Shown here: positions 276-62,960 of the stretch, piece by piece
Layout: each line of letters opens with the position of its first letter
Numbering within the stretch: position 1 is the stretch's first letter
Origin: Dipteris shenzhenensis
Taxonomy: Eukaryota
Strand: one strand, 5' to 3'
DNA length: 64,000 nt
Assembly (NCBI GenBank): GCA_047967505.1
Contig: CM106538.1
Made by a program: the position numbers and the translations under genes
Notes under the pieces: model-generated
Told to the model about the DNA's origin: nothing
Database searches by the model: none
What the model saw: the letters and a program-made list of their open reading frames with translations, nothing else

Positions 276-500
276 TCAAATCTACTACTATGTCTAGAGT
301 CAATTCTAGATTCTATTTTAGACACAAATGTGAAGAAGGTTGAGAAAGTTGTAAGTGGATTTGGAGAAAAAAGCATACCTTGGTACTTTGACATATATAG
401 TATTGAGGGAGCATAGTTAACACGAGTTCACTTATTTGTTTTGTTACCTAATAAAAGTGCATACACTTGTGTTGGATCGGCACATTAAATCACTGAAGAT

Positions 501-3084
501 GTGGTTGGAAAAGAGGGAGATATTGGATTGTTGACCATTATAAATCAAAAATTTCTCTTGGATCCCAGTGATTATGAAGCATCTCGTATGAAGTCTGATG
601 TAGATGACAACATGCACTCAAGAGGCTTGATAAGTGTTGAATCAATTGATGGAAATAAAATTGACACAGTGACAACAATGATTGAATCATATCGCAAAGT
701 TTTAGCAACATTAAAAAAGTGTAAGAGTGGGGAAGGAACAGAGAAAGGAAAGTCGACTATGGTTCAAGCACCAGGTGGTAGCAGAGAAGGGGCAAAGAAA
801 GGAAAGCTAACTGTAGTTGATGTACCACAAGAAGGAACACCTCCAGAGGGTATGCTAGCAGTTGTGGAAAGAAGCAGTGGTAGTGAATTGTAGCCAAGTG
901 GAAAGGTCATAGGAAAAAAAGAGCAAAAGAAACCATCAAGCTTGGTGGAATATGAAAAATACTATCCATTCGGGTTGCATGCAAGATTTCCAATTCCGGT
1001 TGCAAGATGTGTATATAGAGGGTTGAACAAAGAGCATGTCGAGAAGCTTGCTACAGACTTTGGTTATAACTCTAGGCCTCCTACTACTGTAGCGGATTTA
1101 ATGCCTTTCAATCCTAAAACAAAGCAGCCCCTGGAAAGGGTAGATAAAAAGGATTTAACCAAGTGCCACTACTGGATACTATCTGGACAACATTCAGTAT
1201 ATGCTACTAAAATATTCACAGCTAATGGTGATAACAGCACGGTCCAAAGAAAGAACTACTACCACACCCACCAGGCGAGGATTGTAGTGAATTGTCCCGC
1301 ACGCTTTTGTGTGGAGATATCAAAGATGGCAAACCTGGAGTCTCAAAATATCTTGAGACAATCTCCATACATTGATATACTTAAGCAGGTGAGGGGACAA
1401 TGGATTCTCTTTAACAAACCCAAGAAAGCACAATAAGGGCTTGCAAAAGGACATCCAGATCGTGAGAATTGGGATGTAAGTACAGATTTTAATTATGAAT
1501 CATTTTTTACAAGTCTGTTTTCTTAATTATTGCATTCTAATGGATTTTTATCTTTTGTAGGCTTTCATTGACACTGGCAAGGTAACATTGGGCAATAGCT
1601 TTGCCACGAAGGATGTACATATGATAATCATAAGCGATGTCATTTATGATGGTTGGATCTCCATCCTTGAGGATTACATTGCAGGAAAATATTCACAAGA
1701 TGGAAAATGCTATAGGTAACCCATAGTCTCAATGTTTAGATGCTTGCATGGATTGAGTGATGACCAAATTAGTCAAATTCAAAATGACATTAAGGAAGGT
1801 AGAGTAGTCATAGCTAAAACAAAGACTGATGCCATGATTCTTGATATTGAAGGATGAGCTATGCAGATCAAGAGAGATGCTGCACTATAAGAAGAACTTT
1901 ATATGTTTATATCGGCAGAACAACCTTCCTTAATGTTAAAAAATTGGGATGAGTGCAGATTACATTTTAAAATTACTCTAGAATTGTATCATCAGATTTG
2001 TGGTTGTTCTAACTCATGGTTAAAAGTGAAGGGCAAGTAGCCAATCATGATGTGATTGTGTTGTTTGACTCAGCATCAACACACAATGTAATCAACTCGA
2101 AGACTGCATGTTGTTTCTTAGAGAGATTTTTGATAAGGAAACTCCACCATTGCCTGATGCTGCAAAGGGGTATCTGAGGTGGATTATGGGACAAAGTGAA
2201 GGTGCAAGTCATCCACCTGGCCTTGGAGGCTCTACACAGTCGGTTCAAACATGGAGGGTATGGAATTTATACATAATGTGTACCAAGAGCAAATGGCAAT
2301 AGGGGTTGCTTTTTTGGATGTAATGTATGGACCAAGCAGAAGTAGAAATTGGAACGAGGATCGCTTTGAGTGTTTGTTGAAAATCTTGATGACAATCACT
2401 TCTCCCCCAGTGCAATTCCTTCTTGTGGTGTTCTTGACCATGGATCATGTATCATGTTTGAAGAATGCATTAAATAAGACATGCAGACAATATAAAATAC
2501 ACTTCGATTGCCTTAATTTTGAAACTACAGATATATTTGTCACTGGATCTATGGATGGCTTAATTGCCTGTGTACTGGCAAGCAAGGAAAAGCATTTCAA
2601 CAATATTGAGCGCTATACCAATGCATAATGTAAGCCATCAATATATGTTGCACGTGAAAAATATGAAAAATCAAGTGGTGCAGAAGAATTAGCTGATGAG
2701 GATGATGATGATGAATTTGACATTGAATTGTCCTTGAAAAGAAAACGTTCAAGTATCATGAAAGACATGATCATGGGTTTCTGTCAAGAAGATGAGTATG
2801 TATTAGACTTGTTCTCTGAGGGGCTTGCTGCAATAGAGTCTCTTTCATGTAAGAGGCGTGTTGTTTTAGTTGTTGAGACTTATGAGGAGTTGGCAAAGGT
2901 TGAAAGTATATGTTGCATGTATGCTTACAGTAATCATGAAATTCGACAATGGGCTAGCTTGCAAGAACCAATATTGGCAATAGAGGGGGTACCAAAAGAA
3001 GATGATACAACTGAAGGTGGAGGGGATAAAGAAATTGATACCATACTAGGACAAAAAGAGCTTCAACCCTTCAATGAAGAGTAG
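501..3084 (+). pseudogene. Decayed gene: putative ParB/Srx-like N-terminal domain, helical middle region, beta-class amino (N6A/N4C) DNA methyltransferase-like C-terminal domain
   Basis: ORFs 501-893 and 942-1436 are in frame across a TAG. There is a GT-AG intron at 1476-1560, and the frame then continues through single stops. Motifs: YWILSGQHSVYA (~1170-1205, ParB-like), GVAFLDVMYG (DVMYG at 2317-2331, DPPY-like motif IV) and EDEYVLDLFSEG..KRRVVLVVE (~2790-2880, motif I FxGxG-like). Motif order IV then I is that of the beta class. Confidence 0.55.
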
Positions 3085-3890
3085 CATGAGCATTTACAAA
3101 AACACGCTTCAAAGTTTTGGGAAACAGAAGAGGAAGCAACAAGTCCTTGAAATTGTCCTTTTATATACTATTTGTGTTTTCCATATGTTATCTTGCTATA
3201 TTCTCCATATGATGTATTAATTTTGTTCCAAAGATATTTTAATATTACTTGGAAATTTCTTCTATCTCATTGCCATAATTCAAATATTCATATATATTCT
3301 TGAATATGTTTAATTGTCTATATTTCATGAAAAGATGTGTTTGCATGTTGTAATACCTTCGGAGTGTGATACACATCCAAATTTATTTATGAGTTCATAA
3401 ATGTTAAAAAGTGTGTTGAGTCTTGATCGTGATGAATGAATTAGTGTAAATTGTTGTTTCTATCCTTATTCACTTCATATGAATGTTCAAATATGTTTTG
3501 GCCACTTGGCCAAATCTTTTCTTAGTGGGAACACTCAGGCAATGCTAGATAATGTTGGACTCCACTCTATCTATTATGCAAAGGTTTTTGGCATTGTAAG
3601 GATATGTAGTTTTGGGGATTAAAATAACTTGAAAGGATATAGATTCAACAACTTTAGGGGGTATACTAAGCATATAAACATGAATGCTTTCTTTTTTTTA
3701 GTAATCCAATTTTGTTTTGAAAAAGAAAAACATGAATGCTTTCACACAAACAAATTGCATTAATAGCACACAACCTAAAGTTTGACAATTTGGTTTTCCA
3801 TCTCAATCTTCAGTTTGTTTCTACTTATGAATTTCATTTCCTTGTTTATCAACAGATCTTGGCCATCTCAATTTCACATCGCTAGAAGCA

Positions 3891-5141
3891 TTGCCTATAC
3901 ATGTGACATCTAATCCAATGATTCGTTATGTGCCTAATTTGAACATTAGCATGCAAGTTCCAAGCTCAACATGGTTGATTGAAAATGTTGAGGATGCAAT
4001 GTCTGGAGTTAATATTCCATTAACAAATGTGGATGCAAGCTTAGAAGGTAAAGGAGAAGATGCAATGTCATTGTATGAAGCCAAGGTGCAAGAAGAAATC
4101 TTAGAAGGTAAAGGAGAAGACATAATGTCATCCTCAGAGATAATGTCAAAAGAGGTGATAACAAAAATAAGACTAGCAGTGATAATAGATTTGAAAGGGT
4201 TATTACTCGAGCGTTGTTTTTTGAAGTCAAATAAACATATGAGCTTGCACAATGGGAAGCATTGGATTGTTCTTTGTCTTGGGTGTTTAGAGTTTCTACA
4301 ATGTTGCTCGATCACAACCATGTTGGCATTTGGTCCATTGGAGGAGAAAAGTGCATGGTGCAACACATGCTGGAAACTTTGGAGCATCATGTTAAATGAA
4401 AGTTACATTTCTTCATGGTTTGGGGTGCGATGGCATGCCACAAGCATACAAAGAGTAGAATCATTCAACCAGATAGGATGAATGTGGAAGCAGAGTTTAA
4501 ACCACTAATGAGAGTGTGGTGTTGTTTTAAAGAGGAATGCAAACCGGCAAGAACAGTGTTCATTGATGTTTTGCCTTACACGGGTTGTGTTAATCCAGCA
4601 AAAAATTGCATTTTCCCTACAAAATTTGATATAGATTGTGGTGATTCTATTTTGCTTCATGAGTTATTACCATACCTACATATGCTAGATGATGTAGTAG
4701 ATGTGCATAGTGCCATCTCTTCTAACAGATTTGGTCAAGCTCCGATTGTTGAAGGGCATGATATGTTCTATTATTTTCAACTAGTGATCCTTGAATTCAA
4801 AGAAAAAAACAAAGAAGTGCTCGAAAGGATATATCGAATCTCATATGTCTACTCGTAGTTCAAAAAAAGACACAAAGAAAGGTATTACTTCACCTATAAC
4901 CAAAACTAGAGTGAGAGGGACTTGTCCTACTACAAGAAGTATGGTGCATGCTCAACATGTTACATTGAATGAAGAGGAAGAGTGCATGCTAGGAAAAATT
5001 GCCAAAATGGGGCCATTGAAAGATAGTGAGGCAAAATGCTTTGCTATGGTTCTTGGATGCAAGGAAAGAGGAATCACTACTGATGCTGCAAGGGCATTCT
5101 TAGCCAACTTGATTCGATTTTATTGCATAGACAACCCTTAG
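3891..5141 (+). pseudogene. FCP1/NIF-like HAD-family phosphatase, frameshifted
   Basis: VIIDLKGLL (~4180-4205, DLxGLL HAD motif I), GCLEFL followed by VGIWS in a shifted frame, FKPLMRVW, and TVFIDVLPY..NPAKNCIFP (cf. IDDSPYK..NP..IFP of plant NIF-domain proteins). Confidence 0.75.
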
Positions 5142-6099
5142 TGAATCTGAGTGATCTTGTTAATTAGAGTTGCAGACACAAATGCTCAGCTAAAACATTT
5201 TTTGGTTCATGTAGCAAGAATGGATGTCCTATTGGCTATTGGAGAACTAATCATCGCTCCCTCTCTTGGCTGAAGTCTTAACTTGATTAGGTAAACATGA
5301 CTTTGGAAGGATTCTGTTAAAGAGATTTCTGTAGGACAGTCATGAAATGGCTGCAAATGCAGTGAACAGCAAACGAGCGTTCATACTAAAACACAGTTTA
5401 TGAACAGTTCACACAAAGTGAGAGAGCTTGAGAACAACTTATCATGCAAGAGTACATAGGGGTAGTTATGGATTTATGTTTAGTTCCTAGTTAATATAAT
5501 TAAGATCCACACACTAAGTTCAGAAGCGTCATCTAGATTGCGAAAAGGCTTTCAGCCATCCCATCACCTTCTTTTGAATCAAAAAGGAGTTTAAGGCCAT
5601 CACAATTTATCATTTCCCACCTCATTTCATCAAGGCTGATCCTTCATCCCATCACATCCAATATTCTTATTATAAAGAATTATGGAATACAATATAGAGT
5701 AAAATAATGCACTAAAATAAGCGAATATAGGGCTAGAGTACCTACAACATCTTTCGGGGGGGTCACTAAGCAATATGTAAGATAGCAAATGCAATCACTG
5801 AAAGGGGTTTTATATTTTTATGAAGTTACATAAAATATACATACAAAAGGGATTTCTTAATTCAAAAAGTGAAATTTTTTTACATAAGGGATAGTTTTAT
5901 CATTTAAAATTACATAGAAGGGGTGTTACATAGGCTATAAAAATCCAGCAATAGGGGGTTTTCCTAATACCCCTTGATCGCACGGATGGACATAAATGCT
6001 TGTAAGTTATCTAGGTTAGCCTTTTGGTGAATGTGCATTGCTCTACAAAACATAGCTACTTCTACAAGCAATGTAAAATGGTAAAATGAGAGTAGCTCA

Positions 6100-6870
6100 C
6101 CCTATTTACTTTGCAAAATTATAGGGAAAAATGAGACTAATCCCAATTCTTTTAAACTCTCTCATCACAATTTTTAACTGTAATCAGAATTCCCCAATAT
6201 TCCTCGACCTAGCTTAAAACTGTTTTCCCTAAAGAAATATTATCTGTCAGGGTGGTCACTATATCACGTGCATTCAAGCCCTATTTTGTAAACTACCTTA
6301 TCTATAAAATTTTCATTAACCAAATAGGGCCTCCAAGAGATGTCTTTACAAGATGCACCATTGTTGGTCCTGTTGTTTACTCCTAGTAGCAAATCTTTGC
6401 TTGATTGGGCCCAATTTCTCACTCGTATAGATGCCTCAAGTAAGAGGCCTAGCTCGCTTGCACTAAACAATATGGGCAATGACTCAATCAATTCTACACG
6501 AGAATTAATGATGTCATTCTAATGTAGAAAAAATCTTTTGAAACTTCCCACTTCCTCTTCATTTCCATGGTCTCAAGCTTCTTCAATGTATCGCCATTGC
6601 TCAAAGAAAGCAATAAAAAGCTATGTGGTTGATTGTGTATGCTCCCTTTCTTGAAATGTCTCCATATGCTCCCCATTCATCAGCAATGGTGGATGTTGCA
6701 ATCCAATACAAACATCATCAAGGCCAAAGATATTAATATGCCCCTCTTTTGGTATGATTTCTTCTTCTGGAATAGCGATGTCAATACATAAAAGAATGTA
6801 TTTTTCCATTGTCCAAGCTTTATGTAACATTATTGCGCAACCAAGGCACCTAAGCTTACCTTTCTCCAAT
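6100..6870 (-). pseudogene. Unidentified decayed coding region
   Basis: Chain of abutting or overlapping minus-strand ORFs (6621-6869, 6494-6676, 6264-6491) with protein-like composition; no family recognised. Confidence 0.3.
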
Positions 6871-8257
6871 TTTAGATTGGATGCGTCAATTTTACGAGCA
6901 AAAACCTATGAGCAGGTTTATCCGAGCGTGTTTTTCAAGAGATTTTTAAAAATGTTTTTCTTTAGGAAACATGGTTTTTACACTTTTATTTTCACTAGAA
7001 CTAGATCCCTTTATCATAAAAATATACAGACTAGTCACTCATTCATTTTTACACAACATAATTTTCTTATTTAGAGACATCCCTTTGTACCCCTGTTATT
7101 ACCTTAAAAAAGTGTTGATTCCTTTAAGAAACATTCCTCATAATCACTCTCAATGTAATAATACTATGCATATATAATTACTTATTAACACATTTATATC
7201 ATATGGCAATATCTTTTTAGTGTTTTTATAGCATATTTATGGACATGTTTCTAAAGAAGTTTAAATTACTATAAATAAGTATTAACTTGGGCTTATATAT
7301 CACTCTCACAAAATACATGTAATATTTAATACTATATATGGAAGATTTTCGAAAATATAACTTCATAGATGTGCTCAAATGGGGTGTTCCGATCAATTTG
7401 AGTGGTTGAATGACTATATTTGGACATTGGATATGAAAGTTATGTCACTTTTAAAAGTGCTGTCCAAGGTAGTTTCGCCAGCGAAACTACCTTGGGAGAC
7501 TTGCTTCAAAGGGGTTTCGCTGGCGAAACTACCTGGATGGCTTACTTCAATGAGTTTTCTTTGAAGAAACTCTTTCATGAAGATAGGTTGAGAGAGGGTT
7601 TTCAATGTCACCCCCTATTAAGTAAAAGTTGTAAGAAGGATCATAAGGGAATTTTCATAGAGAAGTCTACTCTACATGTGGGTTTCTTCAAAAGCCATCC
7701 CATTATGCTCTCACCATTCCTACAGATTCACCTAAATATTTTTGTATAAAATAGGCATTGCTATAATACTTTGCATATTTCTAAGTGAAACTATGTTTTC
7801 TTCTGATCGATTTTTGCCATATTTATGCATAGTGGGAAGCTTTTTTTTTCCTTCGCTCGGACGCTCGGAAGATTTCGCTCAGAAAATGCTCGTCCCCTTT
7901 TAGATTTCCTCCTAATATATGAATCCCTTTCCCTCTCCTCAGTACTCACTTGGCACTAATCTGAAATGATGGGCATGAGCAAAAAATATTTTACTTTGAC
8001 ATGAATGGAACTAATCTTCTCCCCTCTCTCACACCTTGGCCTTTTTGGGGGAATTTGCCTTTTGTCCATGCTTGGGATGAAATGGGCTTGAAAGAGGTGG
8101 AGAACAAGGGAAGGAGGGGGGAAAATCTGAGCAAGTAAAGAGCAAAGAAGCAGACGGATTGTAAGATGAAGCTCATGAAGAATAAAAATAAGTTAGAAAA
8201 GAAAAATGTAAAAATCCAAACTACGCTTTTGGGCTTAGATCATAAAATAGATCAAAA

Positions 8258-10468
8258 TGTTAGATATCAATGCTCCACTCTGGTGTAACTCTGCAGGAAC
8301 TACTTGTAAGCCCCCCATATGAGGAGAAGGCATTTGAGTAGCTAGGTTATCTAGTAGGTCCTGGTTTAGACACCAAATGGGGGCCATGTGTGGCCTGATG
8401 GCTAGACAACTTTAGATAAAGTTGGCACACTGCCAACTAGGCTACATGCAAGTGTGGGAAGGCATCCCATGACTGACCGCACTAAGGGTAGATGGAGCAT
8501 TTCTCAAGGCAGCCCACCTCGGGTTGCATGGCCCGTTTGGAGCCCCAGATGAGGCTTTGGGCCAAACGGACACCGTAGGTTAGTTGCTCTATTCTATGCC
8601 ACGATTCTATTGTGTGGTCAGTGGCCTAATTTGGGACGATTGTCAGACGTTTTGGGCTGACTGGGTCGGTCTCCCAATTGGGTCTAATCGATTACGACTA
8701 GTGGCTATATAAGAGTAAGCTCATGAAGCCCATCATCATCACTGGCTATAGCAACCCTGATTCCTTAGCATCCAACCTCCGTCATCTACTATTTCTAGCA
8801 TGCCATTGAAGCTTCTCACATAGGAGTGCATTGCTGGGAGGCAGCGCCATCTATTGTATCAGTTTTATGGTAATCAACTTTTTGATTCTCCATACTATCT
8901 GCTTTTCTCTCTTGCATACGAGATCTTGTTATTTGTTGAGCACAGACGTTGTATTATTTTCTTACATGGTATCAGAGCTTGGGCTCTAGCAAGAAGATTC
9001 GGTATTGTGTTTCTGTTTGCGAGCAAATTGTGAGAGATAGCCTAGCCCACAAGATTGCAAATCCCACCATTCAGTGAAAGCGAAAAGTTAGACGACACTA
9101 ACTATCCACTCTGGAAGTTCAAGATAAAGACCATCCTAAGCGCATACGAGCTTCGGGATACTGCTATTGGGGTGGATGTGAAGTCGGTTGCAAGACTGGA
9201 TCTAGCCAATGCAAGACAACAGATAGTACCAACTGCGGATCAGATTCTCGCGTGGACAAGAAGAAATGCAGATGCGCAATGTTCTATTGTCTGCAGGTTA
9301 AGTGATTCTATCATGGCATTAATTCAACATGTCACCACAGTGGAGGAGGCATGGACATCTTGAAAATCAGTACGAGACCATGAATCATATGCGGATTCAG
9401 AATCTAGAGACTCAACTCATGAACGAGAAACTGTCCAAGTCTGAAACGGTAGAGAAGTTCATCACTAGGGTGATGCGTGATCAGATGACTGCGATTGGCA
9501 TCACCATCACCAGCGAGAATCTAGCACAAAGGTGAATACGGATTCTCCCACCAAAGCATGATGGTCTTGTTATGGCCCTGAATACGCTGAGCAGAAATCC
9601 GCCCCTCAACTTTGAGGATTTTAGTGCAATGCTTCTGGAGGAGGAGACTCTTGGAAGAGACTTGTTGGAGAGGCATCTTCATTGACTTGGCATTGAGCCG
9701 AAAAAGTAAGTTTACTTGCAGGTGGACATTGAGGGGGGGTGTTAGATATCAATGCTCCACTCTTGTGTAACTATGTGGGAACTAGCTAACTCTACTTGTA
9801 AGCCCCCCATATGAGGAGAAGGCATTTGAGTAGCTAGGTTATCTGGTAGGTCCTGGTTTGGACACCAGATGGGGGCCATGTGTGGCCTGATGGCTTGACG
9901 GCTTTGGATAGAGTTGGCACACTACCAACTAGGCTACATGCAAGTGCGAGAAGGCATCCCATCATAGACCGCATTGAAAGTAGATGGAGCATTTCCCGGG
10001 GTAGCCCACTCTTGGGTTGCGGGGCTGTTTGGAGCCCCAGATGATCCCGGACGGCTCTAGGCCAAACGAAGACCGTAGGTTAGTTGCCCTACTCTACGCC
10101 ATGGTTCTATCGTGGTCGGTGGCTATTTTGGGACCGACATCCAGTCTGCCATTTTGGGCCGACTGGGTCAGTCTCCCAATTGGGTCTAACTGACTATGTC
10201 CGGTGGCTATATAAGGGCAAGCCTGTGAAGCCCATCATCATCACTGGCTATAGCAAACCTGATTCCTTAGCATCCAACCTCCGTCCTCTACTATTTCCAG
10301 CACACCATCGAAGCTTCTCACACAGGAGTGCATGGCTGGGAGGCAGTGCCATCTACTGTATCAATTTTATAGTAATCAAATTTTTGATTCTCCATACTAT
10401 CTGCTTTTCTCTCTTGCATATGAGATCTTGTTATCTGTTGAGCATAGACGTTGTATTGTTTTCTTACA
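8258..10468 (+). mobile_element. Ty1/copia family A, internally deleted non-autonomous copy
   Basis: LTRs 8258-8966 and 9740-10468 (TGTTAG..CTTACA), TSD CAAAA on both sides, PBS TGGTATCAGAGC 8967-8978, PPT GAGGGGGGG before the 3' LTR. Gag remnant at 9055-9647 is fused to the last codons of RNase H. Confidence 0.95.
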
Positions 10469-13559: not shown

Positions 13560-16435
13560 TGGCCTAGCCCACAAGACTGTGAATCCCACCATTCGGCGAA
13601 AGCAGAAAGTTGGACGGCTCTAACTATCCACTCTGGAAGTTCAAGATAAAGACCATTCTAAGTGCATACGAGCTTTAGGACACTGCTACTGGGGTGGACG
13701 TGAGGCCGGTTGCGAGACCAGATCTAGCCAATGTAGGACAATAGATAGTACCAACTATAGATGAGATTCTTGCATGAACAAGAAGAAATGCAGATGTGCT
13801 GTGTTCTATTGTCTACAGTGTTAATGATTCCATCATGGCATTAATTCAACATGTCACCCCAGTGGAGGAGGCATGGATGGTCTTGAAAAATCAATACGAG
13901 ACCATGAATCAGACACGGATTCAGAATCTAGAGACTCAACTCGTGAACGAGAAGTCGTTTGAGTCTGAAGCGGCAGAGAAGTTCATCACTAGGGTGAAGA
14001 ATCTGCACGATTAGATGACTGCGATTGGCATCACCATCACCAGCGAGAATCTAGCACCAAGGTGCATACGGATTCTCCCACCAAAGTACGATGGTCTTGT
14101 TACGGTGCTGAATACGTAGAACAGAAATCCACCCCTCAACTTTGAGGATTTCAGCGCGATGCTTCTAGAGGAGGAGATGCGTCAAAAGACGAGGACTGGA
14201 GAAGATTCAGCTTTCTGGACCGGTCAAAGAAAGGTAAGGGTAAGGACTCTAGTAACCCATCTTCTTCTGATGATAAAAAGAGAAAGAAGAAGATCAAGTG
14301 CTTCTATTGCAACAACGCAGGGCACAAGCAGAATGAGTGCCGAAAGAAGATTGCAGATGAGAAGAACGGAGTAAAGAAAGAGTCCAGCAACAGTGCGCAT
14401 AGGCAGTACTAGTAGAGCTGTTCATCGCAATTGAGGAGATTTGCATGGAGGCAATTCATGTACCTATGGATGAACCGTGGATCATTAACAGTGGTGCGTT
14501 GCGCCACATGACCAGTCGGAAGGATTGGTATACCTCTCTACAGTCCGTAGGGAATGACATCCTGGTAGCAGTCGGAAATGATGCAAAATGTCCAGCAAAA
14601 GGAAAAGGTACAATTGCTCTCAAAGTAGATGGAGTTGTAAAACAGTTGTCCGATGTTCTTTATGTGCCAGATATCAAGAGAAACTTGTCCGTTTCCGCGA
14701 TCACGAATCGGGACCTCAAAGTTCAATTCGATAAGAATGGTGCACAGATTCTGGATCTTCAAGGGAAGGTTATTGGTAAAGGTACACGGTGCAACAACAT
14801 TTACGAACTCTCAGCTTTCAGTGCTCGAGTGGATGTGAAGAACACTAAGTTGTGGCATGAGAGGTTTGGTCATCTAAACCTTAGTTCATTGAAGGAGATG
14901 CATAAAAGTGGAATGATTGCAGACCTACCAGAAATTTCAAATCTGCCCGATGTATGTGAAGCTTGCATGATGGGCAAGCAGCATCGACATCCATTTCCTA
15001 AAGAGGCCAGCAGCGCAAAGGCTCCTCTAGAGCTCGTTCACACGGACCTCTACAAAAATATGGAGACGGAAGCTTTGGGTGGTTCCTACTACTTCATGAC
15101 GCTGATCGATGACTACAGTAGAAGGATATGGATATACTTCCTAAAGACTAAAGATGAGGCTTTTAGTAGGTTCAAGGAATGGCATGTAATGGTTGAGAAA
15201 GAAACGAGGAGGAAGGTGAAGAAGTTGAGATCAGACAGAGGTAGAGAGTTCACATCAACTAAATTCGAAAGTTACTGCAAAAGTCACGGAATTAAGAGGC
15301 AGAAACCCCCACCACATACATCACAGCAAAATGGAGTAGCAGAATGCAAGATCCGCGTCATCTGTGAAATGGGCCAGAGTATGATGAAAGGGAAAGATTT
15401 GCCAAAGGCTTTATGGGCTGAAGCATGTAACACTGTAGTTTACATCCTGAATCGTAGCTCCACAAAGGCTGTGAACGGGATGACTCCACTGCAAGCTTTT
15501 TCTGGTAAGAAACCTTCAGTTGCACATTGCAGAGTTTTTGGATGTGAATGTTTTGTGCATGTCCCTGATGCTACCAAGACCAAATGGGAACCGAAGAGCC
15601 GGAAGTGTATTTTCTTGGGCTACAGTGAAGAGGCGAAGGGTGACCGTCTCTATAACCCTATTACCAAGAAGGTAATTGTAAGTCATGATGTGGTCTTCTC
15701 AGAACAGCCGCATCAATTAGAGGAGGATGCTTCCTTCCTAGACAACCAAGACAAGGATATCCATCCAGTACCGCCACCAATAGCAGACGAAACTCCCCCA
15801 ACAATGCTTGGGAGGATTCAAGACAAAGAAGATGAAGAAGAGCCTGCAGAACCACAACGGCAATGGCCATTCCCGAAGTGTGTAAAGCAGCTTTTGGATG
15901 GTAGAGAACCTCCAGCCATTGAGGAGGAACCATCCGTATACCACCGATCGAAGAGATTAGAGGAGCAAAAAAGGGTGTAGGAACACTTGGTCAACTATGC
16001 TTTGATGACAAAGTGATCCGTGCTGATGAACCCAAGTGTCTTGAAGAGGCACAAGGCGATGATAGGTGGATGGAGGCTATGCAGTCGGAGTATGGCTCCA
16101 TAGTGAAGAACAACATTGGGACCTTGTGGATTGACCACCAAAACGTAAGGTAATCAGAACCAAGTGGGTGTACAAGACCAAGTACAAGTCCAACAGCACG
16201 TTGGATAAGTACAAGGCTCGACTCATGGCAAAAGGATTTGCACAGGTAGATGGTTTTGATTATCAAGATACTTTTGCTCCCATAGCTGGACTAACCACAA
16301 TTCGCAGTGTTTTGGCTTTAGCTACCCAAGGAAGTTGGCCCGTGTTTCAGATGGATGTGAAATCTTCCTTTCTGAATGGAGATCTCAAGGAGGAGGTATA
16401 CGTGGAACAACCACCAGGTTTTGAGATCCCCGGTT
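13560..16435 (+). pseudogene. Copia A gag-protease-integrase and start of RT
   Basis: Gag homologous to 9055-9647; protease WIINSGALRHMT; LWHERFGH..CEAC; integrase IDDYSR/RSDRGREF/QQNGVAE; RT KARLMAKGF..QMDVKSSFLNG; several stops and frameshifts. Confidence 0.93.
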
Positions 16436-16780
16436 TGACAAAATATGAAGAGGGGAGAGGAGAAGAGAGGAGATGAGGAGAGAGGGCACAGCTAGAGAGC
16501 ACACCACAAATGACTAACTGTACACTAGAATTAGTTGAAAAAATAGAATATATACAAACCCTTTTAGGGTTAGGGTTAGGGGATCTAACCCTTTCCTTTA
16601 TAGCACTCTATAAGGTTAGTGCTATGCACATATGATCACGTGATGGTGCTATGCACACATGATCACATGATGTTGAGCGTGAACTCTCAACACCTTCCCT
16701 CAAGATCAACATCATGAAGTAGGCCTTCCCTCAAGATGATGATTCTGGGGAATCGAAGAAGGACTGAGCATTACATTCCA

Positions 16781-19700
16781 TCACACCCCTTTAATGGGAA
16801 TGTCCTTCCTCTGCATCAAACCAAGAGCTAGTCGGTGTTTCTCGAATAGCTCTTTACCGAGTGGTTTGGTAAAGATGTCTGCAACATTTTCTTTGCTATC
16901 ACAATGCTGCAGTGTGATTGATGAAGTGCTCTCTGACATCAATGTGCTTTGTTCTGGAGTGATATACTGGATTTTTGGCCAATGCTTGAGCCGATTGATT
17001 ATCACAGTATATTGTTGTTGGCTTTGACTCATCAAAGTAATCTGTTTCTGACAATAGTCTTCTGAGCCATATAGCCTCACATGCACCTGTAGTGAGTGCC
17101 CTATATTCTGCTTCAGTTGAAGACAAAGAAACAGTTGGCTGTTTGTTTGTTGACAACCATGATATAGCACCTTGACCAAGGAAAAATGCATATCCCTGTG
17201 TCGATCTCCTGGTCTCATGATCTCCAGCATAGTCACTATCACAGTATCCATGCAACCGTGGATGACTTCCTCTGTATTCTATCCCAAACTGTCTTGTACC
17301 TCTGATGTATCTCAAGACTCTTTTGGCTGCATTCCAGTGAGACTGTTTTGGATTTGCCATAAACTGTGCTAGTGAGCTTACTGCATAACAAATATCTGGC
17401 CGTGTGATTGTCAGATATATAAGAGATCCAATGAGTTGCCTGTAGTATCTGTCATTGACTGTAGGCTTTTCTGAATCTTTAGTAAGTTTCAAACTCTGTT
17501 CCATGAGAGTGGCTGCAATCTTGCAATCTGCCATATGAAACTTCTTCAGGAGACTGTCAACATATTTGAGCTGACTCATTGTGCTATCGGAATCTCTCCA
17601 GAACTCAATTCCAAGACAATAGTGCATAAGTCCAAGATCTTTCATGTCGAACTCTGCAGATAAGTCTTGTTTTAATTTTCTGATGAAGCTATCCTTGCTT
17701 CCTGTCACAATGAGATCATCTACGTACAAAAGTGCAATAGTAATATCTTCCCCTTGAACTTTGTAGTAGAGAGTATGATCTGCATTGGACTTCATGTATC
17801 CCAGATCAGCAAAATACTTGTCAATTCTGCTGTACCAACTTCTGGGTGCTTGCTTTAAGCCGTAGAGACTTCTCTTGAGATGGCAAACCTTGTTCTCTTG
17901 TCCTGGTTCAACATAACCGGCTGGTTGTTGCATGTAGACATCCTCTTCTAGATAACCATTGAGAAATGCATTCTTGACATCGAGCTGATACACATTCCAT
18001 TTACTGAGTGTCGCTAGTGATATCAAGAACCGTATGGAATCCATCTTTGCTACTGGAGCATAAGTCTCATCATAATCTTGGCCATATTGTTGTGCAAATC
18101 CTTTTGCAACTAATCTGGCTTTGTATCTCTGAATACTGCCATCTGGATTGTACTTCACTTTGTATACCCATTTGTTGGCTATGGCCTTCTTTCCTGGTGG
18201 AAGGTCGCATAATTCCCAAGTGTTATTTTTATACAAAGCATCCATTTCTTCATTCATAGCAGTTTGCCATTCTGGCTTATCTACTGCGTCTTCGAAGTAC
18301 ACTGGCTCTTCTGTAGCCATGATGGTAGTCATAAGAGCATAGTTGGTGGTTTCCACCTGAATTGCTTTGCCTTTTTGAGCATATGTCAATCTGGCTGGTG
18401 GTCTGCTTTCCCTAGTAGACCGTCTCAGCTGCTGTGGCACTGCTTGGGGTGTTGCTGGCAATTCTTGCTCTTCTTCATCAACCTGTTCTGTAGATGACTG
18501 TGAAGTCGATGCTTCTATCTCCTGTGTAGGTGAGGTTTTCCATTCTGATTCCTCATCAAAGATTACATCTCTGGAGATAATGACTTTGCGGTTGATGGGA
18601 TCATACAATTTGTATGCTTTGCTTTCTTCACTGTAGCCAACCATGATGCATTTGCGTGACTTCGCATCCAATTTCCTACGATGATCATCATGTATGTGGG
18701 CATATGCTATGCAACCAAATATGCGGAGATGCCCAATGCGTGGCTTTTGGCCAGTGAATGCTTCATAAGGAGTCATACCTTGTATCGGTTCGGTAGGAAG
18801 CCGATTAAGCAAGTAGTTAGCTGTAGCTATTGCTTCTGCCCAATATTGATTTGGAAGATGCTTTTCACTAAGCATTGCTCTAGCACTGTCTGCTAAAGTC
18901 CCATTCTTCCTTTCAGCTATTGCATTTTGCTGAGGAGTATCTGCACATGTGAATTGTCTTCGAATGCCGTGAGTTTTGCAAAAGTTGATGAAGGCTGAAG
19001 ACATGTATTCACCTCCTCTGTCTGATCTCATGACCTTGATCTTTCTGCCTGTTTGGTTTTCTACCATGGCTTTGAATTCTTGAAATCTGGCAAACACTTC
19101 AGATTTCTCTTTCAGAAAGTAGACCCAACAATATCTGCTGTAGTCGTCGATGAAGGTCAAGTAATAAAGTGAACCATTGATGCTGCGGGTCTGGGCATAA
19201 CCCCATACATCTGTATGAATTAAATCAAGAATACCTCATGCACGAGAGGTACTTCTGACAAAGTTGGTTCGCTTTTGTTTGCCGAAGCAGCATGCTTCAC
19301 AAACCTTTCCAAGAAACTGTAGCTTCGGAATCCCAATTGCCATATTTTGATTCCTGAGATCTAACAAGTACTTGAAGTTGACATGACCATATCTCTTGTG
19401 CCATTTTGCGGATAGTGGCATTTGTTGCATTTGAGCTGACATGGCATGCTTATCTGGTACTGTAGCTAGCATCCTGTATAAGCGTCCTTCCTTGACACCT
19501 TTTGCTACTAGCTGACCTCTTTTGGATTTGTCTCTGATAGTGCATTCATCACCGTCGAAGATGACTTTGTAGTTGTGTTCCGTCATTTGACCTACTGACA
19601 AAAGGTTCTTGCTGAGCTTCGGAACATAGAGCACATCTTTGACTAATCCTTTTGTACCAGTGAAATTGTTCATAGGGATAACACCTGTCCCTTGAACCGG

Positions 19701-21029
19701 ATTCGGTGTATTGTCTGCTGTGTAGATGACATTATTTTGACCTTCTAATGGCTTCATTTCTGTGAACCATTCCTGATGATTTGTCATATGAGATGATGCA
19801 CCGCTGTCGATGTACCAAGGATCCTGTTCCACTTGGTCGACTTGATAGCTGAAATCCTCTTTGGGATTGAAATCAGTGTCTAGGTACATTATTGTATCAG
19901 TCTGATGCAATTCCTCACTTGCAAGAAACATATTTCCATGTTCATTTGCAAAATGATTGTGACTAGAATGTCCACCACGATGATTTCCTCTTCCTCGGGA
20001 ATTCCCTCGATTACTGCTGGATTGACCACCTTGGTCATACTGCTTCTTGCGGCAATCTCTTTCATAGTGTCCAAACTTGTGACAATAGTTGCATTGAATG
20101 TTTGACACATTGGTGGATGCATTCCCTCGTCCTTGGAATCTTCCTCTGTTGGAATGATTTCCTCTTTGCTAATTTTGATGTTGCTGAGGATGCTGCTGAT
20201 GCTGGTGCTGATTCTGACTTTGATTTTGTTGATGATGATGACCACTTTTCTGATATGATCTACCTCTGTTTCTGCCTTTGCCTCTGCTTCTGTCTGAAGC
20301 TGTGAATGCTTGATCATTAGAATGACCTTTACGTGCTTGAATGGCCTGAGTCCTGAGTTCTTCACCAAGTAGAACTGACTGAAGTTCTTCAAGTGTTGGA
20401 ATTTGCCGTTGGATGGCAATACTCTGGACTAGATTCTCATATCCTTCTCCTAGTCCATTCAGGATTACTTGAACCATTTCTGCGGGATTCATAGTTTCTC
20501 CTGCTACTGCAAGTTGATTGTTGTAGTCTTTAATGCGGAGTACATAAGCATGACCGGTTTCATTGCTATTGCGGAAACTCTGGTTGATCTGGTTTCTCAG
20601 GGTGAGAATCCTGGATGTGTTCTTGGACTCGTAGAGAGCTGCGAACATATCCCATGCTTCTTTTGATGTCTTAACTGTGTTGAGCTGTCCTAGCATGACA
20701 TCTTGCACATTCTGCTTGATCAGGTGATAGGCATACTTGTCTTTCTTATCCCATTCTGCTTGAGCTCGGGCAATGGCAGGATCTGCTATTGGTGCGGAAA
20801 CTATTTGTGTAGATGTAGATCCCGATGTAGATCCCGTTGCTGGTGCTGTGACAACAGATGGAGTAGAGCTACTGGTGGCTGGATCGGCCAATGGTCTAGG
20901 TATGGATCCATCGACATACTCCCATTTGTCGTGAAGCACAAGAATGGTCTCCATTCGGTATTTCCATGTACCATAATTGGAGTTGTCTAACTTAGCAGAT
21001 GCCTCCAGATTGAGGTTGCTAGTTGACAT
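16781..21029 (-). pseudogene. Copia C gag-pol polyprotein with two in-frame stops and a 3' frameshift
   Basis: ORFs 20169-21029, 19236-20108 and 16899-19160 share one frame. Motifs: zinc knuckle CNYCHKFGHYERDC, WYIDSGAS, integrase core, LYVDD, RNase H DSDYAG/IYCDNQSA; ADIFTKPL lies in a shifted frame. Confidence 0.96.
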
Positions 21030-21799
21030 GGTGCAAACAATGTACTCAAAAGTGTCCTGAAAAACTCTGTATGAATCAACTGCAAATACACTGAAGATGC
21101 CAAGTGAAATCTCTGTACCGTCGGTGAAGATAGAACTGCAGTAAATAAGATCTGCCCTGTGTTACAAGGCTTGTGGCAATGATGCCAGGAATAGCCAAGA
21201 GGCTTTACAAGGCTGAAAAATGATGTGCACGATGCCGTGAGATAGCCAAATAGGCTTTACAATGGTGGCATGTGTGTGTGAAATCAAGTGCTATCTGCCC
21301 ACTGAATCAATCTGCAATGCCTCTGAACTCTAAAGTCTGCTCACTGAACTGATGAACGTAAGGTTTTAGGTAATGTAATGATGTGAAATCGGATGTGAGC
21401 GTATGGACTGACTCCGAGTAGGTACTAGTCGGGAATTTCGGGCATGGCTTAGATTGGCAACTTGGGGAATTCAAAGCGTCCCCTCTATGGCGATCTAGTC
21501 TACTCTGATCTAGATCTAAACCAACCATCGATCGATGAAAGAGCAGCAAATAATTCCTTTTCCTTTGTTCTTTTTAAGTGCTGGGTCAGATGCGTCGATG
21601 TAGAGGCAAATGTGCGTGAAGGAAGTGGTTTTGTCGGCGAAGCTCAAATGTGAGTGTAACTTGCGCCGAAATGTGCGCGTGATGTAACGAGCGCGTAGAG
21701 CATGAAAAATCGAGCGACTTTCCTTTTTGGAGCACCCTCAAATTCTTCCTGGATCAAGAGATATGACTTGATCTAGGTGGAGGGGCAAAAGGAGTGCAA

Positions 21800-25092: not shown

Positions 25093-26081
25093 GTTCACTT
25101 GTGGGTGGACATTGAGGGGGGGTGTTAGATATCAATGCTCCACTCTCATGTAACTACGCAGGAACCAACTAACTCTACTTGTAAGCCCCCATATGAGGAG
25201 AAGGCATTTGAGTAGCTCGGTTATCCAGTAGGTCTTGGTTTGGACACTAGATGGGGGCCATGTGTGGCCTAATGGCTAGATGGCTTTAGATAGAGTTGGC
25301 ACACTGCCAACTAGGCTACATGCAAGTGCAGGAAGGCATCCCTTGATTGACCGCACTGAGGGTAGATGGAGCATTTCCCGGGGCAGCCCACTCTCGGGTT
25401 GCGGGGCCCGTTTGGAGCCTCAGATAATCTCGGATGGCTTTAGGCCGAACGGTGATCATAGGTCAGTTGCTCTGTTTTGTGTACCGGTTCTATCATATGG
25501 TCGGTGGCCTATCCGACCCCCAATTGGGCCTATCGACTGTTTTGGGCAGACTAGGGCGGTCACCCAATTGAGCCTAGCCAACTACGACTAGTGGCTATAT
25601 AAGAGCAAGCCTGTGAAGCCCATTTCATCACTGGATACAGCAACCCTGATTCCTTAGCATCCAGCCTCCGTGTTCTACTGTTTACAGCATGCCATCGAAG
25701 CTTCTTTCACAGGAGCGCATGGTTGGGAGGCAGCGCCATCTATTGTATCAGTTCTACAGTAATCAAAATTTTGATTCTCCATTCTATCTTGTTTTCTCTC
25801 TTGCTTACGAGATCCTATTATCTGTTGAGCACAGACATTGTATTATTTTCTTACACGTGGTACCACTTATATACCGCATGGTACCCCAAAAGAAATCAGC
25901 GCATGCCATGTGGCCATGCAATACCAGTGGGGTACCGCATGGTACCCCCAATTGGAGGTATATAAAAAATGGCCCCCACTACGTTTTTACCACATTTGGT
26001 GCACAGTTTACCATCTAGCACTTTCATAGAAGCTTTTTAGTGAGCTTTTGCCCATGTTTCAAGGTTTTTTTTTGTCTTTTT

Positions 26082-26400
26082 CAAGGTCGAGTGTGTGGCT
26101 CGTAGTTCTTGGCCTTGATCACCTCATGCACTTGTTTAGGCTTTTTTATTTTGTTGTTTCGCAATCAAGTTCTATTGTTTTACTTACAATTGTTAGCCTT
26201 GATCGCCTCGCCTTACAATTAAGGTCGGGCATGTGGCTCACAGTTCTTAGCCTTGATCACCTCACCCACTTATTTAAGCTTTTTATTTTGTTATTTCATA
26301 ATCAAGGTCTATTGTTTAACTTACAATTATCGGCCTTGATCGCCTCGCTTTACAATTAAGGTCCGGTGTGGCTCGCAATTATTGGCCTAGATCAATGCAC
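26082..26400. repeat. Degenerate tandem repeat of about 140 bp (AAGGTCG..TGTGGCTC..GCCTTGATC)
   Basis: Units start at about 26082, 26221 and 26358; GCCTTGATC recurs, with a further copy at ~26640-26685. Confidence 0.7.
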
Positions 26401-26450
26401 CTTGAGCAATACGTTTATAGTTATTTTTTCCATGTTGGAAGTTTCTAACC

Positions 26451-26454
<4 letters not shown>

Positions 26455-26490
<36 letters not shown>
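26455..26490. repeat. (GA)n microsatellite
   Basis: Perfect GA run. Confidence 0.95.
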
Positions 26491-26493
<3 letters not shown>

Positions 26494-26979
26494 TGACGTT
26501 CTTTTATTAAAAGATAGAAAATTTTAAATGGGAGAGAGGGAGAGAAAAAGAGAGTGAGGGAGAGAAAAAGAGATTGAGGGAGTAAATATATAAGTAATAC
26601 TTATGTACATAGGATATTGAGTATAGCCGGTAGTTTTTGGGTGTGTGGCTTGCAGTTGTTCGCAACTGTCGGCCTTGATCACCTTGCTTCCAACCTTCCT
26701 AGCCTAATGTGTGATTGGAAAAGTTGATCTAGATCATCATGGCTTTGTATTGCTGTTACATGTTACAAGATTTCAATTGACATTTTGTATCTAGTTTTTT
26801 GAGTGTGTTGTTATATGTTTATCTAAATATATATATACAATACGTTGTCAGTGTGTTATGTGATGTGATTTGTAAACCATCATTGTGATTATCTGAGAGA
26901 GTATCCTTTCATATCTTAGATGTGGTTGCATCTAGTTTTTCAATCATAGTAATGAATTGTAGTTCTTATGTTTTGTAGA

Positions 26980-27427
26980 TCACTCTATGTACTCGAGTAA
27001 TTCATCATGCCATCTAATATCTCCCTTGAAATGAAGAAGGAGATACAAATTCTCATCTATGAAGTCACAATTTGCTCTATTTATAAATTGATAAATGAGT
27101 AGATTCGTGATTGTGTGTCTTTGGCTACAAACTTCCACTTGAAATTCCATGGGTGTAGTGAGAGAGTATCCCAACTTCCACTCCACCCTTTCCTTCCTCA
27201 TGTTGAGTGAAGAACCAATTCCTTCTCTTATCAACACATTTGAGTCGACTTTCAAGAGAAGTACTACAAACTTTGACCTCTTGTAATGTAAGAAAAGTGG
27301 GAGAAAGGTTGTTGGCTCTAAGCCAATAAGCTATCTCTTCCCCTCTACCAGAGTCAGTAAGGCCTCTGACATTGAGGGAGAGAATGGATATTGGTTTATT
27401 TACCATTCTTTCTATTCCCCTTTCCAT
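26980..27427 (-). pseudogene. LINE (non-LTR) ORF2 APE-endonuclease N-terminal fragment
   Basis: ISILSLNVRGL, LTLQEVK and GKGGVEVGI match the L1/Tx1-type endonuclease motifs (SxNVRGL, LQE, GGVA). Confidence 0.8.
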
Positions 27428-27429
27428 AT

Positions 27430-27900
27430 GAGATTCACAAAAATCTCAGCAGAAATGAATTGTAATGAACATAGGTCTCTCTCTCCCTCATAAGAAACTA
27501 TCATAAGCACTCAAGCAATGAACGAAAATATGGATGGAAACTTCTCTCACAGAAGAGAAAACTCAATCTCAATCTCTCAATCACTCAATCTTTGTCACAC
27601 TCTCAAGAATCACAATGCCTCGGCGAAAGGCAAGGGAGCTCTGATACCATGACAAAATATGAAGAGGGGAGAGGAGATGAGTGGAGATGAGGAGAGAGGG
27701 CATAGCTTGAGAGCACACCCCAACTGACTAACTGTACACTAGATTTAGTTAAAAAAATAGAATATATACAAACCCATTCAGGGTTAGGGTTAGGGGATCT
27801 AACCCTTTCTTGCACTCTATAAGTTAGTGCTATGCACATATGATAACGTGATGGTGCTATGCACACATGATCACATGATGTTGAGTGTGAACTCTCAACA
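27430..27900 (-). mobile_element. Truncated copia family C: 5' LTR (27650-27900), PBS and short leader
   Basis: Homologous to 23724-23980; GCTCTGATACCA at 27638-27649; leader similar to ~23480-23720; no second LTR found. Confidence 0.9.
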
Positions 27901-27968
27901 AAGGTGACGACTTGTCACATCGCTCTTCTAAGCCTTACCAAGAGTTGATCCTCTGATTTGACTTACGG

Positions 27969-28034
27969 ATAGCTATATAGCGACTTTTACAAAAGTCGCT
28001 ATATAGGGACTTTTAAAAGTCGCTATATAGCGAC
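27969..28034. repeat. Overlapping palindromic repeats AAAAGTCGCTATATAGCGACTTTT
   Basis: Three GCTATATAG cores joined by GACTTTT/AAAAGTC arms. Confidence 0.8.
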
Positions 28035-28527
28035 ACTGAGACTCTACTTCACCTGGACATATCTCTGGAGAAATCTAAGGTAGAATCCCAAGGTATATTA
28101 CAACATCTAGATGCTTCTCCTCTACCTCTGTGTCTATCTTTTCCTTGTGCATTAGATCATCTTGTACGACTCGCTCAGGACTACCTTCTGCTCCAGCATC
28201 TCATCATCATCATATCATCATCTCTTCTTAATTTTTCAATTTCTATACTTTCAATTATTAGGGAACCATACTCAAGGAGATCTGCTCCACCAGTCTAGCT
28301 TTGAAGTTATTACATACTCCAAATTGTAGCTATCCTCCTTTAGCTGTAACAAAGAGTAATGAAAACTCAAATTTTTTGATCCTATATGAAACTTTTGTAC
28401 GTGAATTTTTTAACAATGAAAATATTATGGTTCTTACAATAGCTCTTGTACAATGACTCTGTTAATGCACTCTTTGGTTGTAATCTCAGCATTATACATG
28501 CTTTTTAAATATATAATCATCTTCATG

Positions 28528-28532
<5 letters not shown>

Positions 28533-28566
<34 letters not shown>
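28533..28566. repeat. (TC)n microsatellite
   Basis: Perfect TC run. Confidence 0.95.
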
Positions 28567-28569
<3 letters not shown>

Positions 28570-62939: not shown

Positions 62940-62960
62940 TGATCATTAAATTGATTGGCA

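Follow-up and report, generated by a model that had tools for sequence, protein, structure and literature searches.

A decayed copy of an intron-bearing fern gene family with a beta-class methyltransferase fold and a NIF/FCP1-like domain

The DNA analysed here is a 64,000-nucleotide stretch of Dipteris shenzhenensis (contig CM106538.1; the whole stretch is referred to below as the window). Near its start lies one copy of a gene belonging to a fern family whose proteins carry, from N to C terminus, a ParB-like domain, a domain with the fold of beta-class DNA amino-methyltransferases and a domain of the NIF/FCP1 phosphatase family. The copy in the window has decayed. As an overall reading we consider it likely that window positions 321-5141 are a pseudogenised copy of this multi-copy, intron-bearing family, the intact members of which are non-catalytic. 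An earlier note on this DNA, made from its letters, had described a ParB-methyltransferase fusion gene at positions 501-3084.

The fern gene family

The read-through translation of positions 1561-3084 was used as a phmmer query in an exhaustive search that covered 1.84 billion representatives. It matched 41 proteins at E ≤ 1e-3, with 20 at E ≤ 1e-10, 5 at E ≤ 1e-30 and the best match, P0004, at 8.1e-54; with this many relatives and a best E value of this size, the observed gene is not a product of chance. A profile of the ParB-like part brought in 13 additional proteins. Word-indexed protein searches gave no match for either the 180-residue ParB-like piece or the 508-residue read-through. Source names were found for 13 of 20 proteins looked up, 12 from Adiantum nelumboides and 1 from Ceratopteris richardii (KAH7436354.1), and all of these named fern relatives were annotated "hypothetical protein"; the remaining 7 were unnamed ENA, Logan, JGI or NCBI records.

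Domain probes mapped over 49 stored proteins revealed the order of the parts: an N-terminal domain (WYxDxYDxxG), a ParB-like domain (YWI(S/D)GQHS), a helical domain, a methyltransferase-like domain in two halves, an acidic linker, PF03031 and a tail. The longest members were P0048 (1125 aa), P0023 (990 aa) and P0007 (857 aa). Individual gene models omitted different parts, and there was no clean full-length reference among them; put together, the intact protein comprises about 1,100-1,300 residues in seven parts, namely the N-terminal, ParB/sulfiredoxin (Srx)-like, helical, methyltransferase-fold, linker, phosphatase-like and tail parts. We regard the family as previously undescribed and current domain libraries as blind to its ParB-like and methyltransferase-like parts. 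Neither the family nor a ParB-methyltransferase-NIF architecture was found described in the literature searched, supplements not being covered.

The phosphatase-like domain of the homologues was recognised by Pfam. PF03031 (cut-off, 21.8 bits) matched P0005 with 62.3 bits (5.8e-17), P0007 with 55 bits (1e-14) and P0023 with 35 bits (1.4e-8). The corresponding open reading frame (ORF) of the window reached 17.1 bits (E 0.0046), under this cut-off, and the window matched the NIF parts of P0048 and P0005 by tblastn at E ~1e-53. The catalytic motif of NIF/FCP1-SCP phosphatases is DxDx(T/V). Motif 1 of the fern sequences read DLNG (P0005, P0048), SLCG (P0007, P0008) or DLKG (window), so that the second aspartate of DxDxT was missing in all five and the full motif was found in none (0/5). 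The later DD/DN motif 4 was kept in 4 homologues and decayed in the window.

The methyltransferase and ParB-like domains

The homologue P0004, which is 33% identical to the window translation over query residues 216-453, was modelled by AlphaFold with an 18-row family alignment. The model had a mean predicted local distance difference test score (pLDDT) of 74.4, with values of ~85-93 across residues 200-430, and its elements ran in the order E202-E321, linker, H358-381, E387-391, E407-412. Of the PDB structures matched by Foldseek, 40 had E ≤ 1e-3, and M1.HpyAVI (8.7e-7) came first; the other leading matches were CcrM, M.MboIIA, M.RsrI, a Type III Mod subunit, M.BceJIV, TTHA0409 and M.PvuII, and a bdelloid rotifer cytosine-N4 methyltransferase matched at 1.5e-4. 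In VIA, ranks 1-20 were all beta-class or Type III Mod methylases (Z 15.6-12.4, root mean square deviation [rmsd] 3.2-4.2 Å, 176-217 aligned residues), covering model residues ~199-432, and MT-A70 enzymes came next at Z ~10-11. Matches among the predicted viral structures of BFVD were N4/N6 methylases of phages, archaeal viruses and Pandoravirus; some of the long alignments extended into the helical region, and one protein aligned in this way is named ParB/Sulfiredoxin. The P0004 model contained a Rossmann methyltransferase fold whose motifs follow the order of the beta class (IV-VIII, target recognition, then X and I-III), and as modelled its fold and circular permutation are those of the beta-class N6/N4 DNA amino-methyltransferases. 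An hhalign comparison of the family profile with a 227-residue "DNA methylase" of the F plasmid (E 4.3e-4) extended over motifs X, I and II, setting KKKHVINATIKAFNDEHEVVLDVFAC-GLASKAALFNHKKTIAVV of the family on KPVTSLQPLIESFTHPNAIVLDPFAGSGSTCVAALQSGRRYIGIE of the plasmid protein and VLDxF..G and R..I over VLDPFAGSG and RRYIGIE.

Canonical beta-class enzymes carry (D/N/S)PP(Y/F/W), including DPPY, as motif IV, FxGxG as motif I and an acid that ends strand 2 as motif II. Motif counts were taken from the stored family proteins aligned to the family hidden Markov model. The motif IV position read D-x-x-x. The aspartate was kept in 23 of 24 sequences and the fourth residue was aromatic in 3/24, among them the window's DVMY, but PP occurred in none (0/24); DPPY was accordingly absent family-wide (0/24). 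Motif I read [DE]x[FY]xxG, with F/Y..G in 24/24 and the acidic residue in 23/24. FxGxG occurred in 0/24, and there was a one-residue gap relative to the canonical loop (DPFAGSG in the hhalign alignment). The motif II acid was present in 11 of 23 sequences, the window included. The earlier note had remarked that both catalytic motifs of the window copy deviate from consensus and had asked after DPPY/SPPY-like and FxGxG residues in other copies; the deviation turned out to be a trait of the whole family, and none of the 24 sequences had such residues.

One explanation for these results is that the methyltransferase and ParB likenesses are artefacts, arising from generic Rossmann-like or alpha-beta folds or shaped by the predictor. 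It would account for identities to the structural matches of merely 8-14% and for the want of a significant profile match to PF01555, PF02195 or PDB sequences. The PDB rows obtained with three family profiles and P0048 were at chance level and included proteasome alpha-7, Esa1 (E 0.023) and the N-methyltransferase 9wj7 (E 0.08-0.17), and a tblastn search of phage genomes with P0023 yielded a single chance match (E 6). An artefact would not explain, however, why the VIA top 20 all belonged to one enzyme class with the same circular permutation, stood 2-4 Z above the next class and covered ~200 of the ~235 domain residues. Moreover, the independent sequence-profile alignment chose the same motif X-I-II register, M.RsrI, the only methylase among the chance-level PDB-profile rows and their sole methylase-type near-match, aligned to the same region as the domain, and the order ParB-like, helical, methyltransferase is that of known phage fusions. 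We therefore hold an artefact to be highly unlikely.

Support for the ParB-like domain came from an ESM Atlas model of P0051 residues 150-325. Of its 10 structure rows, 8 were clusters of the ParB superfamily (ParB/RepB/Spo0J, ParB_N, KorB/HTH_ParB, DndB and DUF6551), with template modelling (TM) scores of 0.57-0.64 over 127-152 residues. As a reference for profile comparison, 24 plasmid ParB N-domains were aligned, taken from relatives of the F-plasmid leading-region ParB. The register chosen by hhalign placed IPV..C on iPlsrl, YWIlsGQHSI.AA on y.v.aGgRR..A and ISKMENIE on sliEN.qR, thus bringing GQHS onto GgRR and ENIE onto EN.qR. The ParB-like profile gave no match to the single 652-residue F-plasmid ParB. 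The nucleotide-binding P motif of ParB is worded GxxR. In the family the motif read (S/D)G(Q/L/K)H(S/F), and an arginine followed the histidine in 0 of 14 sequences; passages of one paper report that mutation of the conserved P-motif arginine abolished nucleotide binding (PMC12704722).

By ESM Atlas features, the window's 180-residue piece (894-1433) scored 0.96 with hypothetical proteins of eukaryotes and with fungal DUF3723 clusters, and 0.92 with a ParB_N cluster. For the ParB-like part in general (the window piece and P0051 150-325), fungal DUF3723 clusters (0.95-0.96) came nearest, alongside hypothetical proteins from Cnidaria, Mollusca and Porifera; no Pfam match confirmed a DUF3723 reading of this part. 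DUF3723 genes are conserved among the cargo of Starships, and passages of the Starship paper call DUF3723 unknown in function and SMC-like. As a lead, this likeness may point to a broader ParB-like domain of eukaryotes, so far unrecognised, with ties to mobile elements.

Several results weigh against reading the window copy as a relative of ParB-methyltransferase proteins that have lost catalysis. The evidence for the fold was obtained on the homologue P0004 and not on the broken sequence of the window itself, whose methyltransferase-like piece reached a pLDDT of 36.8 when folded alone. PF01555 matched 0 of 8 window pieces at E ≤ 1 and 0 of 28 homologues at E ≤ 0.01, and PF02195 matched 0 of 14 members at E ≤ 10 and likewise neither P0013, P0023 nor the window piece. 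No PHROG, NCBIfam or PADLOC model matched the methyltransferase-like or the ParB-like part. Profile searches of PDB sequences gave nothing significant, the best methylase being M.RsrI at E 1.2, and no ParB was among the matches of the three PDB profile searches. The P0051 model was of low confidence (predicted TM score 0.43, mean pLDDT 0.54), and both ESM Atlas searches count as one source. The hhalign comparison of the family with the 24 ParB N-domains scored 21.9, which, although above 40 column shuffles (13.8 ± 2.8, maximum 20.5) and the reversed alignment (13.5), corresponded to a nonsignificant E of 0.039 and a probability of 1.3%. As for catalysis, the motif IV aspartate is retained in 23 of the 24 sequences, and the subgroup that includes the window copy keeps both D..Y and the motif II glutamate, which would permit an atypical activity. 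The term "non-catalytic" is a judgement from motifs alone, the canonical ones being DPPY, FxGxG and DxDxT.

With a low-confidence model and a nonsignificant profile alignment behind it, the ParB/Srx assignment is weaker than that of the methyltransferase; for the region ~960-1433 we regard a ParB/Srx fold as probable, short of established. The earlier note's likeness to ParB plus methyltransferase was thus borne out by AlphaFold, Foldseek, VIA and hhalign for the methyltransferase fold and found less firm backing for ParB. The note had named a lack of any Rossmann-methyltransferase or ParB/Srx similarity as the outcome that would speak against it, and such similarity was seen. Its choice between an active writer and a dead binder tips, on the sequences, toward a catalytically dead DNA binder. 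Since the catalytic signatures have all degenerated family-wide, and in parallel, the intact proteins would be non-catalytic binders, and we think that the intact paralogues probably bind DNA or chromatin without catalysis.

On the rival view, the window copy alone is dead, and the intact members are amino-methyltransferases of an atypical but active kind that act on DNA or RNA and write N6-methyladenine (6mA) or N4-methylcytosine (4mC) in ferns. In its favour, the fold is that of the beta-class N6/N4 methylases, including the rotifer 4mC writer (8s9m, 8s9n, 8s9o), and the motif IV aspartate, the F/Y..G and acid of motif I, the motif II glutamate of 11/23 sequences and the D..Y of three sequences, the window's among them, have survived. 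The motif IV prolines and FxGxG are, however, missing throughout, the glycine loop shows a one-residue gap in the hhalign alignment, PF01555 went undetected in the members examined, and the ParB-like and phosphatase-like partners are degenerate in parallel, as expected of a scaffold. We judge this view improbable.

For the binder reading, we propose that the ParB-methyltransferase core would descend from ParB-N6/N4-methylase fusions of phages or prophages. The ParB-like and methyltransferase-like surfaces would hold DNA and the pocket of the phosphatase-like module a phosphoprotein partner, so that the intact proteins would act as scaffolds and neither 6mA nor 4mC would be written. ParB-N6/N4 methylase fusions are enriched in phages and prophages according to passages of PMC12704722, and in parts of PMC12704722 and PMC4738411 eukaryotic methylases are traced to such fusions and to ParB-terminase loci of phages. 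A more ambitious proposal is that ferns possess an expanded family of their own in which a phage-type ParB-methyltransferase module, joined to an RNA-polymerase-II-C-terminal-domain-phosphatase-like domain, makes a new DNA-anchored regulator. Such a regulator might be a triple pseudo-enzyme scaffold that links a DNA or chromatin mark to the transcription machinery, e.g., for transposon control or self-promotion, or it might be an atypical base-modifying enzyme without the canonical PP and GxG motifs; we consider the proposal unlikely.

Bacterial-type amino-methyltransferases are rare in eukaryotes, and each case has raised a question about 6mA or 4mC as a eukaryotic mark. In ferns this fold, apparently together with its usual phage partner ParB, has given rise to a diversified, intron-bearing family, and the parallel loss of signatures in three "enzymes" suggests a reuse of their folds in binding. 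The family is testable in Ceratopteris, a transformable model fern. It also serves as a warning that annotation by Pfam only overlooks such acquisitions.

Decay, extent and surroundings of the window copy

ORF pieces in a consistent frame span 489 to 3084 on the + strand, and their read-through translation contained 2 in-frame stops in 489-1475 and 13 in 1561-3084, in agreement with the earlier note's view of a single gene broken by stops. In the homologous frames of 321-3084, 9 stops were premature (414, 486, 891, 1434, 1717, 1855, 1888, 2626 and 3082), and the frame changed at ~2212 and, in the phosphatase-like part, at ~4304-4319. Of the 13 stops of 1561-3084, 6 sit inside a 103-nt segment at 2032-2134, and 2 further ones are due to the frame change that this filler makes. 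The filler also accounts for the shifted frame of 2135-2211; P0023 residues 354-379 align to 2135-2212 in frame 2 by tblastn. Two DNA contigs (X1 and X3) and 2 RNA reads (of X21) have instead a joint 2031>2135 with 12 letters between. Read in another frame (ORF 2013-2177), the filler resembles the Ty3/gypsy protease motif DSASTHNVI (…VIVLFDSASTHNVINSK…), and it is probably DNA of a long terminal repeat element within the pseudogene.

Two DNA runs (as contigs) and two RNA runs (as reads) under the same species label supplied the sequences for comparison. Being only 90-99% like the window, they come from other copies; these have GAG at 891 and CAG at 3082, where the window has TAG. The TAG at 3082 was also considered as a splice donor and rejected, since the frames do not fit and other copies have CAG. 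The two RNA runs contained 17 and 35 reads of at least 92% likeness, most of them 90-99% alike and thus from paralogues. The RNA reads show low-level transcription of some family members, and no more. Belonging to a multi-copy family of ferns, the window copy is a pseudogene and probably without function; itself a dead relic, it is of no functional interest.

The GT-AG intron at 1476-1560 that the earlier note had pointed out was likewise upheld. It reads GTAAGT...TTTTGTAG and moves the frame by +1, as the flanking ORFs require. The genomic ORFs of six paralogues (P0050, P0051 and P0053-P0056) run past the exon into "...WDVS(S/L)" and end soon after; this "...WDVS" corresponds to read-through of a GTAAGT-type donor at the same codon and so supports the intron position. 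P0015 begins in an intron-like leader and enters the next exon at "EFVNV...", and the Logan contig P0021 and three Adiantum models (P0005, P0045 and P0048) run through the junction without a break. Judged from these sequences, the family has conserved the position of the intron. RNA depth over 1448-1611 was close to nil, so the junction of the window copy itself was not covered.

The coordinates of the gene copy and its parts are collected in Table 1. Family homology in the window extended from 321 to ~4894 by tblastn, and with ten family proteins as queries one gene copy only was found. P0048 residues 5-438 aligned to 321-1490 (joint E 1.5e-86) and residues 439-769 to 1588-2643, P0051 aligned to 543-1517 (E 1.3e-52), and methyltransferase-like matches extended to ~3048. 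Phosphatase-like matches lay at 4161-4304 and 4304/4319-4894, in two different frames, and tblastn with family proteins gave no match between 3048 and 4161. The stretch 3085-4160 has an acidic coding start, an AT-rich non-homologous part and then an ORF from 3831 that enters the phosphatase-like domain; homologues have an acidic linker of ~120 residues at the matching position. The counterpart of the helical middle domain is helical over residues 30-191 in the P0004 model. The tail ORF resembles the C termini of P0007, P0023 and P0048 when compared by eye, and the tail was also matched among homologues in the domain map. A SAP-like reading of the tail, an impression gained from its sequence, was set aside. 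No Pfam model matched any of the 8 window ORF pieces at E ≤ 1. The span 501-3084 proposed earlier lies within the gene and is about its first 60%; the gene is longer, and its NIF/FCP1-like domain had been missed. The motifs ILSGQH, FLDVMYG, VLDLFSEG and the downstream R..V.V.E were all found at the places where they had been noted.

Table 1. Features of the gene copy in the window (positions counted from the first letter of the window)
Feature	Position	Strand	Description and evidence
Gene copy	~321-5141	+	Intron-bearing, stop-riddled; earlier extent 501-3084
Exon region 1	321-1475	+	N-terminal domain of unknown fold, then ParB/Srx-like domain; tblastn, translations
In-frame stops of exon region 1	ending at 416, 488, 893, 1436
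IPWYFDIYSIEGA of the N-terminal domain	375-413	+	Within exon region 1
ParB/Srx-like domain (probable)	~960-1433	+	ILSGQH 1176-1193; ESM Atlas structure matches
Intron	1476-1560	+	85 nt, spliceosomal-type, phase 0
Helical middle domain	1561-2031	+	No known family; phmmer query residues 2-158, domain map, P0004 model
In-frame stops of middle domain	1717-1719, 1855-1857, 1888-1890
Foreign filler segment	2032-2134	+	12 nt here in other copies
Frame-shifted gene stretch	2135-2211	+	LPDAAKGY 2150-2173; frame restored ~2212
Beta-class amino-methyltransferase-fold domain	2212-3084	+	phmmer, P0004 model, Foldseek, VIA, hhalign
In-frame stops of methyltransferase-fold domain	2626-2628, 3082-3084
Methyltransferase motif IV position, DVMY	2317-2328	+	Within FLDVMYG 2311-2331
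Methyltransferase motif I position, VLDLFSEG	2800-2823	+
Methyltransferase motif II position, VLVVE	within 2854-2877	+	Within RRVVLVVE
Linker and probable intron	3085-4160	+	ORFs and sequence; splice sites uncertain
NIF/FCP1-like (HAD) phosphatase-like domain	4161-4894	+	PF03031, tblastn; frame change ~4304-4319
Phosphatase motif 1 position, IIDLKGLL	4182-4205	+
Phosphatase motif 4 position, FIDVLP	4559-4576	+	Decayed
C-terminal tail, MSTRS...	4895-5141	+	Stop 5139-5141; ORF 4788-5141

The 64-kb window consists of repeat-rich eukaryotic DNA, and away from the gene its long ORFs encode polyproteins of the Ty1-copia and Ty3-gypsy types, with Pfam matches that include RVT_2 (8e-77), rve and gag. 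This setting bears on the possibility that some large DNA transposon or endogenous viral element, as yet undescribed, carries the gene as cargo or as an accessory and that the gene owes its copy number to transposition, a view which concerns the gene's residence and is compatible with the explanation preferred above. Many diverged copies exist, with 12 named gene models on different Adiantum contigs and the 90-99% alike DNA contigs of the same species label; the decayed copy sits among copia and gypsy elements, just downstream of a 57-nt tandem array; the gene models P0017 and P0033 are chimeric with reverse transcriptase/RNase H or Tf2 SH3 domains; and passages of PMC12704722 tie phage ParB-methyltransferase fusions to mobile elements. 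A six-frame Pfam scan of 5100-8400 and 26000-35900 revealed, however, no transposase or integrase by the gene, and the repeat search found no inverted repeats framing it. Inter-copy homology begins at 320, at an acceptor-like edge (...TTTTTACAG), and such a start at an exon-like edge fits ordinary gene duplication; Ceratopteris, moreover, has an annotated chromosomal gene. We thus treat residence in a mobile element as a tentative possibility, somewhat less probable than its absence, and the earlier note's term "element-borne" found no backing, with neither a transposase nor terminal repeats found beside the gene. The window copy remains, in our reading, a decayed member of a multi-copy fern gene family.

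The 57-nt array itself lies at 28-237 (3.7 copies, 75% matches, internal palindrome AAGATTTGGCC...GGCCAAATCT) and adjoins, upstream, the position 320 where inter-copy homology begins. Similar words recur at 31146-32827 in a repeat family with a unit of 81 nt, which is looser and in part palindromic. On the - strand, a six-frame read-through scan located a core histone fold at ~30620-30910 (PF00125, E 6.7e-17), which could be a histone gene or pseudogene among repeats, and a weak match to Ulp1 protease C48 at ~29775-29860 (PF02902, E 6.6e-4, slightly under the cut-off). Ulp1 protease C48 domains are often carried by plant DNA transposons. The Ty1-copia/Ty3-gypsy polyprotein ORFs, some of them long and open, are located at 14403-21161, 38442-44587 and 53326-56893 (RVT_2 at 8e-77 and 2.6e-77; rve, gag and protease). 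The region 45300-47200 is GC-rich (0.58-0.60) and strongly G-skewed, with short-period repeats (~8-14 nt), and is crossed by long spurious ORFs on both strands. Three long ORFs on the - strand at 59181-62942 (432, 393 and 227 aa) had no Pfam match at E ≤ 0.01.

Comparison with known systems

The phage and prophage ParB-N6/N4 methyltransferase fusions (PF02195 plus PF01555) share with the fern proteins the order of a ParB-like, a helical and a beta-class methyltransferase part. In contrast to them, the fern gene is eukaryotic and intron-bearing, escapes the Pfam models PF02195 and PF01555, lacks DPPY, FxGxG and the ParB arginine, and adds an N-terminal domain and a C-terminal NIF/FCP1-like domain. 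Their likeness would thus be one of layout, the sequence models that define membership of these fusions having given no match.

Solved beta-class enzymes (M1.HpyAVI, CcrM, M.MboIIA, M.RsrI, M.PvuII and TTHA0409) have the same fold and permutation as the P0004 model, with Z 13-15.6 and rmsd 3.2-4.2 Å over 176-209 aligned residues. They differ in sequence (9-14% identity) and in motifs, the fern proteins having D-x-x-x for motif IV and F-x-x-G for motif I; methylase activity of the fern domain appears unlikely from these motifs. The bdelloid rotifer N4CMT (8s9m, 8s9n, 8s9o; Z 13.5-14.0), reported to write 4mC, is likewise a bacterial-type beta-class fold in a eukaryotic multi-domain protein (PMC8885841). 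It differs from the fern family in its partner domains, and the catalytic signatures are missing from the latter.

The NIF/FCP1-SCP C-terminal-domain phosphatases (PF03031) resemble the C-terminal part of the family, in that homologues exceed the Pfam cut-off and the DD/DN motif 4 is kept in four of them. They differ in that DxDxT has become DLNG, SLCG or DLKG in all five fern sequences and that the fern domain is fused behind a ParB-methyltransferase-like core. Catalytically inactive methyltransferase-fold partners are known from the MT-A70 clade, namely METTL14 and MTA9. These belong to another clade (Z ~10-11 for MT-A70), form heterodimers and have no ParB or phosphatase module, but as in the fern family the methyltransferase fold is retained while the catalytic motif is degenerate, presumably for the binding of nucleic acid.

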